The notes under the pieces were generated by a model that was not told where the DNA came from, did not search any database, and saw only the letters and a list, made by a program, of their open reading frames with translations. A stretch of DNA of 64,000 nucleotides from Alphaproteobacteria bacterium (GTDB lineage: Bacteria; Pseudomonadota; Alphaproteobacteria; Rs-D84): assembly GCA_009784815.1 (NCBI GenBank), contig WQXN01000001.1, forward strand, positions 65,857-129,856. Direction: 5' to 3'. The translations under genes were made by a program, and so were the position numbers. Below are positions 60,130 through 63,259 of this stretch, one piece after another (position 1 is the stretch's first letter; each line of letters opens with the position of its first letter).

Positions 60130-62016
60130 ATGAGGAAAATTATATTAGGAGTTTTCGGACTTGTCATAGCCGTAACATCAAGCGACGCCGCCGTGTTGCG
60201 CGGACAGGCCATGGTCGCGGGAAGGGCTAATCAGCCGGGCTTGGTGAATATTGTGCGCGCGGCTGGTACGCCCGACGCCGCAAGGTCTGCGGTCGACGTC
60301 GCGACGATGGATGCTATGGTTCAGGTTGTGAATCCCAATACCGGAAACGTCATGTTGGAAAGCTTTTTACCGGACGGCACCACTCTTTATACAGACCCTA
60401 TGACCAACGAAAAATTTGTGATGGTTGACGGAGCTTTGGTGGCTTATATAGATGAAGACGACCGCATGATTCCGCATCTTAACGTGACGGTCCGCGAAGC
60501 GCGCGAAGTTTGTACCAATGTCAACGCTCATGGCTTCGAGGGCGAGTTCAACGAATTGACTTTCGAATGCATGGTGCCGATCGTAGCCTTGGGTCAGAAC
60601 GGAAAAGTCATATCCAGCGGTGACGGAGATGCGGTCGCGTTCTATCCGTTCGGTTCGGTCGTGCAGTGCAACGCCAACACATTTGACAGCATCCGCGTCA
60701 TGAGGCGCACTTCGCAATATGTGATCCCGGCCTTGATAGTCGGCGGCGCGGGTGTCGGCGCTGCGGTCGGGCATTTCTGGCCGCGTGGAAATTGTCCGGA
60801 AGGATTTGTAAGCGCGAATAATCGTTGCGTGCAATGTCCGGAAAATTATGTGCCGGTCCCGGATCAAAATATTTGCATTAATCATCAAACCGAAAGAATA
60901 GCCGTTATGAAAGAATCCAAAGGCGGAACCGTAACTGATCTTAGACCGACGCGCGCCGAAGACCTGCAGCGTTTGGCTAATCAGAATGCCGCCTCTGCGA
61001 CTTCTGTTTCGGCACCAAGGTCCGGTACGTCCGGCGAAAAATTTACAGAGTTTCAAAAGGAGCTGGACGAGTTGGACGAACGGTTTAAAAAGGAAGATAT
61101 ACAATTTTGGTGCGACGCCGCTCCGCGGAATTTAAGGCACGAAATAGGTAGCATATTTACTTCAAGCAAGACATGGAATTGTTTGGCTCAGAGCGAATTT
61201 GCTTCGATTTATAGGGCTGACGGCGCTTCGCCTCAAGTCTTTTTGACATCATTGTCGAACAGTGTGAATAATGCTAGGATGTTATTGCAGAATTTTAACA
61301 AGCTTAATGACGTTGAAGAATGTCGTAAGGCGGCAGAGTTTGGAAATTTTGTAAATAATAATGTCAGATTTAACTATGTGGCTAATGGTACATGCGGCAG
61401 CATAACTGGCCCCATGATTACGATTAGTTACAATATCAACGGTCAGTGGACGTACTTCGGAGAGACTAGGACGAGTGTTCCTCAGGGCGAGGCGGCTAAA
61501 AACAGGTTTATGGCAGACCTTAACAAGTTTGGAATTCCCCAAGGAGGCGGAATATTTGCCGCCACTCATATGTCGCGCTTGGATTCTAGGGTTACGAAAC
61601 TATCGCAACTTGCGAATGAGATCAATGATAGTCTAAGTAACGCGGAGATTTCCGTGCAAGAAAGAAACGAATTGCTTTCCAGAATTCTAAGGCTTGAACA
61701 GGAAATTGAAACTGTCACGGAAATGGAAACAATTCCGGGAGTGACGGCGGAAGAAAAGAAGGGATGGATGTCAAGGGTTTGGGGAAATAGGGTTGCGCGC
61801 GGAGCCATAATAGGCGCGGGCGCCGGAGCTGCAATCGGTATCGCTTACTGGTTCTATGAAGGCAGCCGCACCAAGTGCGACGTCGGTGGATTCCAGACCG
61901 TAGACCTTGGCAAGACTTATCGCCTGCCGACCTTCCGCGAGCATATACAAAGGAACCCTCCAATGATGACTCCGGTTCAACCGGTTCCGATGCCGACCCC
62001 GACTCCGGTTAATTAA
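60130..62016 (+). CDS. Large secreted/membrane Cys-containing orphan protein (628 aa)
   Basis: Signal peptide MRKIILGVFGLVIAVTSSDAA. Two Gly/Ala-rich TM segments (IPALIVGGAGVGAAVGHFW and GAIIGAGAGAAIGIAYWFY). Pro-rich tail. GGGAG RBS. Confidence 0.65.
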   Translation: MRKIILGVFGLVIAVTSSDAAVLRGQAMVAGRANQPGLVNIVRAAGTPDAARSAVDVATMDAMVQVVNPNTGNVMLESFLPDGTTLYTDPMTNEKFVMVDGALVAYIDEDDRMIPHLNVTVREAREVCTNVNAHGFEGEFNELTFECMVPIVALGQNGKVISSGDGDAVAFYPFGSVVQCNANTFDSIRVMRRTSQYVIPALIVGGAGVGAAVGHFWPRGNCPEGFVSANNRCVQCPENYVPVPDQNICINHQTERIAVMKESKGGTVTDLRPTRAEDLQRLANQNAASATSVSAPRSGTSGEKFTEFQKELDELDERFKKEDIQFWCDAAPRNLRHEIGSIFTSSKTWNCLAQSEFASIYRADGASPQVFLTSLSNSVNNARMLLQNFNKLNDVEECRKAAEFGNFVNNNVRFNYVANGTCGSITGPMITISYNINGQWTYFGETRTSVPQGEAAKNRFMADLNKFGIPQGGGIFAATHMSRLDSRVTKLSQLANEINDSLSNAEISVQERNELLSRILRLEQEIETVTEMETIPGVTAEEKKGWMSRVWGNRVARGAIIGAGAGAAIGIAYWFYEGSRTKCDVGGFQTVDLGKTYRLPTFREHIQRNPPMMTPVQPVPMPTPTPVN

Positions 62017-62058
62017 TATATCCAATGTCATTGTCAGGCTTGACCTGACGACCCAGGT

Positions 62059-62206
62059 AAAAAAAGCGGCGCCCCTTTTGGGGGCGCCCGCACACTATAT
62101 ATTTGTCAATACTATAAAATAATACCCTGCACTTCGTAAACTTTACATGGGCATAATTAACTATATTCAGATACTTATTTAACGTTTCACGTGAAGCGTC
62201 CGTATC
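62059..62206 (-). ncRNA. Candidate small RNA (about 147 nt) defined by promoter and terminator
   Basis: Begins about 6-7 nt downstream of a minus-strand TATAAT. Has a 5' imperfect palindromic hairpin. Its 3' end is GCGGGCGCCCC-CAAAA-GGGGCGCCGC plus U7. The only ORF is ATG CCC ATG TAA. Confidence 0.5.
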
Positions 62207-62211
62207 TTTCT

Positions 62212-62240
62212 ATTATATTAAAATTCAGGTGTTTTGTAAA
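62212..62240 (-). promoter_or_regulatory. Near-consensus promoter TTTACA-N17-TATAAT on the minus strand
   Basis: Minus strand reads TTTACA (62240-35), 17-bp spacer, TATAAT (62217-12). Back-to-back with the fabD promoter. Confidence 0.5.
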
Positions 62241-62257
62241 TAAGATAAAGTTCCTTA

Positions 62258-62285
62258 TTGAATTTAAGTTTTTTTATGCTAAAAT
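62258..62285 (+). promoter_or_regulatory. Candidate extended -10 promoter for fabD-fabG
   Basis: TTGAAT 62258-63, 16-bp spacer, TGcTAAAAT with TAAAAT at 62280-85. Confidence 0.45.
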
Positions 62286-62311
62286 CTCAAGGCACAAAAA
62301 GGAATAAATAA

Positions 62312-63259
62312 ATGTCTAAGATGTTGGTGTTGCCGGGGCAGGGTTCTCAATTCGTCGGAATGGGAAAAGATTTGGCCGAAAATTTTGATATAGCAAAAAA
62401 TATATTCGCGGAACTGGACCATGCGCTTTCCCAAAACCTTTCAAAAATCATGTTCGAAGGGCCCGCCGAAGAGCTGAACCTTACCACAAATTCCCAGCCC
62501 GCGATCATGGCTGTGTCTATCGCCGCTTTGCGCGTTTGGCAGGATTTATCAGGACTGACCGTCAAAGATGCTTTCACTTATATTGCCGGACATTCGTTGG
62601 GAGAATATTCCGCGCTTTGCGCCGCAGGGTCTCTCTCGCTGCATGACACCGCAAAGCTTCTTCGCGTTCGCGGCGACGCCATGCAGCGCGCGGTGCCGGT
62701 AGGCGAAGGCGCGATGGCCGTAATTTTAGGTTTGGATATAGATGCCGTAAATAAAGTCTGCGGCGAAGCGTCCGCTGTCGGAGTTTGCGAATTGGCCAAT
62801 GATAATGCCCCTGGTCAGATAGTTATATCGGGAGTCAAGGCCGCGATCGAAAAAGCCGCCGAGCTGGCCGTCGCCGCCGGCGCAAAGCGCGCGATGATGT
62901 TGCCCGTATCTACCGCTCCGCATTCTTCTTTGATGGGTCCGGCCAGGGCCGAGATCGAGATCGCGTTGCGGGATATGACTTTGGTTCAGCCGGTTATTCC
63001 CATTATTTCCAACCGCACCGCAGCGCCCGTTCAGGCTTCCGAAGAAATCAAAAACCTTCTTATCGAGCAGATGACCCGCGGCGTTCGCTGGAGGGAATCT
63101 ATTCTTGCCGCAGAATCATTAGGCGTCGACGAAGTAGTTGAATTTGGTCCGGGAAAAGTCTTGTCGGGCCTGACGGGACGCATATCGGCGAATCTGGCCG
63201 CCGTGTCCGTCGGTACTCCCGAAGAAATAAAAAAATTCATAGGAGATTATCATGTTTGA
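62312..63259 (+). CDS. fabD: Malonyl-CoA:ACP transacylase
   Basis: GQGSQFVGMG and GHSLGEYSAL. 315 aa. Confidence 0.95.
   Translation: MSKMLVLPGQGSQFVGMGKDLAENFDIAKNIFAELDHALSQNLSKIMFEGPAEELNLTTNSQPAIMAVSIAALRVWQDLSGLTVKDAFTYIAGHSLGEYSALCAAGSLSLHDTAKLLRVRGDAMQRAVPVGEGAMAVILGLDIDAVNKVCGEASAVGVCELANDNAPGQIVISGVKAAIEKAAELAVAAGAKRAMMLPVSTAPHSSLMGPARAEIEIALRDMTLVQPVIPIISNRTAAPVQASEEIKNLLIEQMTRGVRWRESILAAESLGVDEVVEFGPGKVLSGLTGRISANLAAVSVGTPEEIKKFIGDYHV

Follow-up and report, generated by a model that had tools for sequence, protein, structure and literature searches.

Background

Intergenic palindromic repeats of the REP/BIME type, known from E. coli and Pseudomonas, act as terminators or mRNA stabilisers. 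In the parS centromere of plasmid P1 an IHF site, for which the consensus is WATCAANNNNTTR, lies between the ParB boxes. The chromosomal ParB site of ParABS systems, also named parS (the site of B. subtilis Spo0J and Caulobacter ParB), is near-universal and has the consensus TGTTNCACGTGAAACA (PMC7022226).

The locus at positions 62059-62240 had been put forward, in a sequence-only reading, as the gene of an independent novel small RNA. It is probably a mosaic peculiar to this species, in which two lineage-specific intergenic DNA repeats together mimic an sRNA gene, and its palindromic site may be compared with a chromosomal parS of weak or secondary rank that neighbours a REP-type terminator hairpin.

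With chromosomal parS the locus shares the palindrome core, including one intact GTTTCAC half-site, and its homologs in genomes of the same genus include sites that immediately precede parA; the sites are likewise few per genome and all intergenic. It differs in that the 16-mer matches at only 13/16 positions, that the sites of this lineage carry a conserved flank on one side at a fixed distance, that the copies in the host genome are dispersed before fabD, gap and other genes and not clustered at parAB, and that the ParB gene is missing from the host assembly. A one-sided flank in fixed register is not known from canonical parS sites. The loose likeness to P1 parS would be that another protein-type motif adjoins a centromere site; the setting here is chromosomal and the ParB box is of a different type.

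The hairpin repeat of the locus, like REP/BIME elements, is short, dispersed and intergenic, shows compensatory stem changes and conserved flanks, is often paired with a second hairpin, and in one orientation reads as a hairpin plus T-tract. It differs from them in sequence (TGTCAT-stem-CTTGA-stem-ACCCAGGTAA, with no GTAG-type head) and in having one copy only in the host genome. Finally, the layout is that of a sigma-70 sRNA gene such as the SRP RNA gene of the same genome (C2:21186-21265), as both start from a near-consensus promoter, have a short body free of ORFs and close with a GC hairpin and U-tract, but the unit described here has no family match, conservation or structural signal.

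Genomic setting

The host genome (G000) is a 0.83-Mb MAG in 12 contigs, 87% complete. The window, by which we mean the whole 64,000-nt stretch of DNA analysed, is C1:65857-129856; positions are those of the window unless a contig is named. The locus lies in a 295 bp spacer between a lineage-specific envelope gene, which matched no Pfam family, and fabD-fabG. Genes were called approximately for the genome-wide counts, as greedy longest ORFs, giving 92% coding DNA. An ENA metagenome contig carries the spacer base for base, but this is possibly the source assembly and not an independent observation. From left to right the spacer is composed of a REP-like module, an AT-rich linker, a copy of a parS cassette and the conserved fabD promoter. 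The features are as follows.

60130-62016, plus strand: lineage-specific envelope gene (the orphan gene), 628 aa
62026-62060, plus strand: REP-like element, TGTCAT-TGTCAGG-CTTGA-CCTGACG-ACCCAGGTAA, directly after the stop of the orphan gene
62059-62065, minus strand: T7 tract (A7 on the plus strand)
62066-62091, minus strand: GC-rich hairpin GCGGGCGCCCC-CAAAA-GGGGCGCCGC, 10 pairs with one bulge, -20.9 kcal/mol, z = -2.7
62136-62227, minus strand: block common to the in-genome paralog at C2:149989-150085, 76% identity over 97 aligned positions
62152-62183, minus strand: one-sided flank GTTAAATAAGTATCTGAATATAGTTAATTATG, homologous to the parS flanks of relatives, with the fixed-register TAA kept
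62184-62197: parS-like palindrome core, GCTTCACGTGAAAC on the minus strand and GTTTCACGTGAAGC on the plus strand
62212-62217, minus strand: -10 hexamer TATAAT, 17 nt from the -35
62235-62240, minus strand: -35-like hexamer TTTACA, outside the block common to the paralog
62258-62285, plus strand: fabD promoter TTGAAT-16-TAAAAT, the -10 preceded by TG; G001 and G002 conserve this promoter
from 62312, plus strand: fabD-fabG

Minus-strand promoter, terminator and candidate transcript

The elements from which an sRNA gene had been proposed are all in the DNA. On the minus strand TTTACA (62240-62235), a 17 bp spacer and TATAAT (62217-62212) match the consensus at 11/12 positions, and this candidate promoter stands back-to-back with the plus-strand promoter of fabD. 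The body holds no ORF of at least 30 aa on the minus strand between 62211 and 62059, the only reading frame being ATG CCC ATG TAA, and a transcript from the presumed start near 62205 would be about 146 nt long. It would end in the 10-pair hairpin with one bulge (62091-62066), followed by T7 (62065-62059). A GC-rich hairpin directly followed by a U-tract, as in an intrinsic terminator, exists on the minus strand only; read on the plus strand, the hairpin follows A7 and leads into ACACTATATATT, with no T-tract.

The candidate was set against all such signals in the genome. Promoter matches of at least 11/12 number 50 in intergenic DNA and 23 within genes. Since 43 of the intergenic matches face gene starts, as against seven facing gene ends, strong intergenic matches would appear to be mostly real promoters, and about half of the seven could be chance. 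Intergenic hairpin-plus-T terminators lie behind a same-strand gene in 53 cases and elsewhere in 16. When a promoter of at least 11/12 had to be followed at 30-400 nt by a terminator on the same strand, without an intervening ORF, only two loci in the 0.83-Mb genome qualified, 62059-62240 and C2:21153-21265. The latter is SRP RNA (RF00169, 34.5 bits, E-value=4e-6, just below the gathering score; RNA at C2:21186-21265). Because ORF-free promoter-terminator pairs are this rare and the sole other instance is SRP RNA, a short minus-strand transcript at 62059-62240 is plausible, and we rate its existence no higher and no lower than its absence. The pairing is the strongest argument for transcription here.

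Such a transcript might come from a genuine, evolutionarily young and species-specific sRNA gene, with the promoter at 62240-62212 firing, the hairpin and U7 ending the RNA, and the product acting in trans or on a neighbouring gene; parS-derived sequence would then have been the raw material of its origin. The 11/12 promoter with its ideal spacing, the very strong terminator oriented for the minus strand only, the retention of the -10 hexamer in the C2 paralog, the scarcity of ORF-free pairs and the 43 to 7 distribution of strong intergenic promoter matches all speak for this explanation. We nevertheless think it improbable, in view of the comparisons that follow.

In G001 and G002 a TTGACA hexamer lies 17-28 nt from the fabD -35; TTTACA is one candidate counterpart of this TTGACA in the host genome, and the TTGACA at 62107-62102 is the other. 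Tiny plus-strand ORFs in the C1 and C2 copies of the block (MGIINYIQILI and MVYIQIVI, respectively) differ mostly by silent changes; with 8-11 codons and no ribosome-binding site they were judged to be non-coding.

Conservation and RNA structure

No Rfam family was matched at gathering thresholds anywhere in the window, and a search of 61900-62400 gave only chance-level matches with E-values of about 1 (mt-tmRNA, and an L20 leader to which only the terminator contributed). The whole-transcript fold (152 nt) has z = -1.8, with 12 of 200 shuffles folding as well, and the fold z-scores range from -1.8 to +0.8. No conserved RNA structure was found with the paralogs, the alignment fold having -1.45 kcal/mol and no compensatory pair. 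A tblastn search for Hfq found no match in the host genome, of which the assembly is incomplete.

Neither the genus nor the family conserves the unit. G001 and G002, which belong to the same genus (FabD 72-73% identical), keep the order of orphan gene and fabD and a fabD promoter (TTGCAA-16-TAATAT or TATTAT), but their spacers are only 126 and 180 bp long and hold nothing resembling the body. No homolog of the unit was detected in 299 family genomes. A search with the body in 41 relatives and the 299 family genomes returned only the in-genome paralog and AT-rich chance matches, and exact-pattern scans of public metagenome and genome contigs returned unrelated parS sites only (e.g., Gardnerella, Psychrobacter), with no extended match.

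Among the grounds on which it would fall, the sequence-only reading had named a lack of conservation joined with a promoter match attributable to AT-rich background. The first half is what G001, G002 and the 299 family genomes show, whereas the second is not clearly the case. What survives of the proposal is the same-strand promoter and terminator, and with them a plausible transcript; a dedicated gene finds no support from Rfam, conservation or structure. That the transcript is a dedicated regulator is unlikely. Three further observations stand against a young sRNA gene: the copies of the cassette on C2 and C8 have no terminator behind them, so that the layout is not a property of the repeat, Hfq was not found, and the conserved block has an explanation as DNA, set out below.

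The parS-like palindrome and its flank

An imperfect palindrome close to the presumed transcription start had been taken for a 5' RNA hairpin. The palindromic sequence is present, but as RNA it folds weakly (-7.4 kcal/mol, z = -1.45, with many shuffles equal). On sequence comparison it is a parS-type DNA feature: 62184-62197 has one mismatch to the core GTTTCACGTGAAAC (13/14) and matches 13/16 of TGTTTCACGTGAAACA. The GATAC/GTATC arms of the supposed hairpin seem better explained as an off-centre remnant of a longer DNA palindrome which is intact in G003. In the C2 paralog these arms (GAUAC/GUAUC) are partly compensated, but they are off-centre.

At up to one mismatch the core GTTTCACGTGAAAC occurs at three sites in the host genome, as against none for the reversed control. 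In a scan of 31 related genomes the reversed control gave matches in only four, and the true sites cluster beside parB. Taken as a 16-mer, the window site has three mismatches and is not rarer than chance would have it, with 2.45 such sites expected from shuffled sequence. The host genome also has one perfect bare parS, at C10:5307-5322.

The relationship to parS is carried further by the DNA next to the palindrome. The 32-nt flank of the window site matches the flanks of parS sites in G247, G003 (upstream of parA), G208 and G002 at 17-18/32 positions, and that of the C2 paralog matches relatives' parS flanks at 19-20/32. Overall the flank matches range from 15 to 20/32 (G003 upstream of parA and lysS, G002, G247, G208, G016 and G017), against a background of 8.2 +/- 2.6 with a 99.9th percentile of 17. 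The best outside match by blastn is the mreB-parA spacer of G001 (C1, 78% over 41 nt, E-value=1e-6; C2, 83% over 35 nt). An alignment of nine copies from the genus has a common block of about 45 nt, TTTCACRTGAAAY-N3-AAATAAGTGTTTGATTTTAGCYGA.

A profile of the parS cassette was built from seven copies of G001-G003 only and searched against the whole host genome. It matches the window locus at C1:128015-128053 (62159-62197 of the window; E-value=4e-4, or 4.2e-4 unrounded), and also C8:15789-15826 (E-value=2e-4), C2:150016-150050 (3.5e-4) and C2:149873-149904 (0.022). More widely, a composite of palindrome half, N13 and the box TTGATTTTAGC is present in 78 of 299 family genomes as against four control matches. 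Among 60 clean composite sites, one position of the otherwise unconstrained spacer is A in 60/60 and the preceding position is T in 53/60. The palindrome and flank are thus homologous to the parS cassettes of relatives, and their sequence very probably derives from the cassette of this lineage.

A different function for the CACGTG-centred palindrome, that of an operator through which a metabolic regulator controls fabD-fabG (and gap), is suggested by its placement, the centre preceding the presumed fabD start by about 100 bp and, in the paralog, the gap start by about 108 bp, with both copies in the same orientation relative to the housekeeping gene. Against this, relatives have the same palindrome and flank before parA, lysS and unrelated genes, on C8 they precede a lineage-specific gene, the fabD spacers of G001 and G002 lack the palindrome and still have a conserved fabD promoter, and the sequence is that of the near-universal ParB site. 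Such an operator is very unlikely, and a fab-specific one was rejected because the same cassette precedes unrelated genes.

Copies of the cassette in the host genome

The reading that we prefer, a mosaic of two DNA repeats, also draws on the other copies within the host genome. The block common to the window and C2 begins a little before TATAAT and runs on for about 85 nt past it, and its most conserved part is CTTCACGTGAAACGTYAAATAA..TGAAT.TAG. On C2 a single spacer, bounded by gap and a 332-aa gene, holds both the paralog, which precedes gap, and a partial tandem copy (C2:149873-149904). In all, the cassette stands before fabD (window), before gap (C2) and before a lineage-specific gene (C8), in addition to the partial tandem copy on C2. 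The distance from TATAAT to the palindrome is 14 nt and is the same in the C2 paralog; the copy on C8 has TAGAAT. Since neither the C2 nor the C8 copy has a terminator behind it, the sRNA-like layout would be peculiar to the window locus and accidental.

In the window copy the flank box TTGATTTTAGC is degraded to CTGAATATAGT, and because of these four mismatches the copy may be a decaying relic. In its full form this explanation holds that a cassette copy and a REP-like module arrived by duplication or recombination and are decaying, with no useful ParB binding and a promoter that is silent or makes noise. The mismatch in the palindrome together with the four in the flank box, the identity of only 76% to the paralog, the absence of parAB genes from the assembly, and the fact that G001 and G002 manage without any of the insert are in keeping with decay. 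The divergence of the C1 and C2 copies is uneven, however, the palindrome plus flank (about 40 nt) being about 90% identical and the neighbouring 15 nt about 50%; the same derived CTTCA half-site is found in all three full copies; and a genome that is 92% coding seldom keeps 200 bp of junk. We regard a wholly dead relic as improbable.

An 87-nt MITE-like repeat interrupts the C2 paralog; a relation of the locus to this repeat was rejected, as the window does not align to it. A target-site duplication flanking the insert of roughly 170 bp (TTTGTCAATA/TTTGTAAATA) was likewise rejected, about six such 9/10 repeats being expected by chance in a 300-nt AT-rich region.

The terminator hairpin and the REP-like repeat

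The element at 62026-62060 is the only true copy in the host genome. Matches to its pattern with up to two mismatches number 21 in G001, 8 in G002, 11 in G005, 8 in G015 and 7 in G012. Of the 11 predicted stem pairs, 4 show compensatory changes and none is disrupted; with multiple dispersed intergenic copies in relatives and a conserved hairpin, the element is thus of the REP-like kind.

The two right-hand positions of the element, 62059-62060, are the final AA of its GGTAA end, and the remainder of the T7 run sits at the place in the tail that reads TAAA in most relatives. The conserved 3' tail is A-rich, GGTAATAAA; here it is GGTAAAAAAA, supplying part of the minus-strand T7. Behind several of the G001 copies stands a second short GC hairpin, at the place corresponding to the hairpin at 62066-62091, and read in reverse these two-hairpin modules give a hairpin plus (A/G)TTTATTACCTGG, which is terminator-like. 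In the parA leader of G001 the parS cassette is followed by one such module, an order that the window shares. Judged by these comparisons, the terminator hairpin and part of the T-tract belong to a dispersed REP-like two-hairpin repeat (62026-62091).

The modules are found in mixed orientation relative to neighbouring genes; the minus-strand orientation at 62059-62091 need not be designed. In G001 and G002 the hairpin behind the orthologous orphan gene has a plus-strand T-tract. The fabD spacers of both genomes are without the cassette and the linker.

Partition genes and a model of the locus

ParB (PF02195) is absent from the 87%-complete host assembly, as are parA and mreB, the neighbours of parB in G001 and G002. 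The most likely cause for the loss of all three from view is a single unassembled region. ParB is present in 27 of the 31 related genomes searched, and this, together with the perfect parS on C10, is the basis on which ParB binding is predicted. Given a ParB in the host, there would be about an even chance that it still binds the window site usefully.

We propose the following model. The first part of the mosaic, at about 62136-62227, is very probably a diverged copy of the parS cassette of the genus, comprising a ParB-binding palindrome and its one-sided flank at a fixed distance. This cassette, which lies upstream of parA in relatives, has spread to other promoter-bearing spacers. The second part (62026-62091) is the REP-like two-hairpin module, of which the GC hairpin and A/T tail, read on the minus strand, form a textbook intrinsic terminator. 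TATAAT belongs to the AT-rich edge of the cassette and TTTACA to flanking DNA, a combination from which RNA polymerase is probably able to start near 62205. It would then be halted at 62059-62065, yielding an RNA of about 146 nt that would be a by-product, and termination at this point would shield the convergent envelope gene from antisense transcription. If ParB were bound, some 8-21 nt beyond the presumed start, one would expect it to impede transcription.

The case calls for caution: where a genome is small and bears repeats, two unrelated intergenic repeats can by chance place a perfect terminator 146 nt from a near-consensus promoter. A novel sRNA should therefore be called only after its conservation and its paralogs have been analysed.

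A possible bipartite centromere site

What began as a by-product of this analysis is possibly worth more than the sRNA question itself, namely a one-sided parS flank in fixed register in 78 of 299 genomes and, in one genus, a cassette that has reached several promoter regions. Binding of a second factor to the flank, or regulation of adjacent genes by ParB, would, if true, extend the known roles of chromosomal parS.

A broader and rather improbable scheme may be drawn by analogy with P1. The centromere site of the family would be bipartite, with the ParB palindrome and the TTGATTTTAGC box at a fixed 13 nt, an invariant TA in the spacer, and an IHF-like bending factor on the box as in P1 parS. 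In the genus of the host the cassette would have multiplied into the promoter regions of parA, lysS, fabD and gap, ParB might double as one of few remaining transcription regulators, and the short transcript at the fabD site could be a read-out or control of ParB occupancy.

In the window copy the IHF consensus is not matched, its reverse complement being ATTCAGATACTTA with two mismatches. The reverse complement of the flank in many relatives is AATCAA-N4-TTA, which resembles the consensus WATCAANNNNTTR, and the full consensus is fitted by only 37 of 60 family sites.

Flanked parS sites

Across the family, parS sites carry a one-sided flank in fixed register, GAAAC-N6-TA(A/T)-N4-TTGATTTTAGC. 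The composite of parS and flank was present in 78 of the 299 family genomes as against 4 control matches, its spacer A being found at 60/60 sites. Read as the reverse complement, the flank is similar to an IHF consensus at 37 of the 60 sites. Flanked copies number four in the same-genus relative G001, two in its congener G003 and 3-4 in the source genome, G000. Examples among the extracted loci (local coordinates), together with the fourth G000 copy, are:

L106 2895-2940, flanked parS
L107 783-830, flanked parS
L114 ~2130-2170, flanked parS
L045 1531-1565, flanked parS
G000 C8:15723-15829, fourth cassette copy, GCTTCATGTGAAAC plus flank

About 40 nt separate the cassette on contig C8 from a downstream promoter, TTGACA-N18(G9)-TAAAAT, which precedes a 192-aa lineage-specific gene. 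In G001 a GC-rich hairpin, ATGTGAAATGCCCCC-TGAAA-GGGGGCATTTCACAT, splits or extends the palindrome (L114 ~2140-2200; L116). The palindrome core is ATTTCACATGAAAT in all four G001 copies, which suggests that ParB specificity has shifted in that species.

Genes missing from the source assembly

No parA, parB or mreB, which are neighbours in G001 and in a further congener, G002, was found in the whole G000 assembly (an 87%-complete MAG), nor was a tmRNA detected there with ARAGORN. These absences likely reflect one or more unassembled regions. A perfect parS is kept at C10:5307-5322, inside a 62-bp convergent spacer, where it is adjoined by a bidirectional terminator.

The fabD spacer and small ORFs

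The spacer between the orphan envelope gene and fabD, and the second G000 cassette, on contig C2, contain the following:

Window 62258-62285, plus strand, fabD promoter, TTGAAT-16-TAAAAT with TG upstream
Window 62142-62177, plus strand, tiny ORF in the window cassette, MGIINYIQILI*
C2 ~150002-150028, plus strand, tiny ORF in the C2 cassette, MVYIQIVI*

The promoter is kept in G001 and G002, as is TGTCAA (minus-strand TTGACA; window 62102-62107), which in all three species lies a short way downstream of the hairpin of the orphan gene. Differences between the two tiny ORFs are mostly silent or conservative, stop-to-stop included; neither has a ribosome-binding site, and both are probably due to chance.

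Dispersed repeats

Two repeat families were recognized:

G000 C2:149903-149990 (L008 ~1415-1502) and C1:237291-237365, MITE-like repeat of 87 nt, CAACGAATCCACCnAATCnAAGATTCGGGGATTCTGCTCGGACGGGAAAACATGAC...GTCATGTTTTC..TTCCGTCCTCAC
L069-L081, further loci of the MITE-like repeat
Window 62026-62060, plus strand, REP-like repeat, TGTCAT-[7-8 bp stem]-CTTGA-[stem]-ACCCAGGTAAWAAA
L002, L003, L004, L005, L007, L009, L010 and L012, ~position 1500, further REP-like loci

The MITE-like repeat has 11 copies in G001 and 8 in G002, some at contig ends, and one copy splits the C2 cassette, sitting between two tandem half-copies. Matches to the REP-like pattern (≤2 mismatches) number 21 in G001, 11 in G005 and 8 each in G002 and G015; G000 itself has a single true copy. 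Comparison of copies revealed compensatory changes in the stem, and a second GC hairpin often follows; the repeat may serve as a terminator or mRNA stabiliser.

SRP RNA

One further RNA gene was located:

G000 C2:21153-21265 (L082 254-366), SRP (4.5S) RNA gene, RF00169

It possesses a promoter (TTGACT-17-TATAAT) and its own terminator. Its RNA matches RF00169 at 34.5 bits; the gathering score for that family is 40, and the gene would therefore escape standard annotation.
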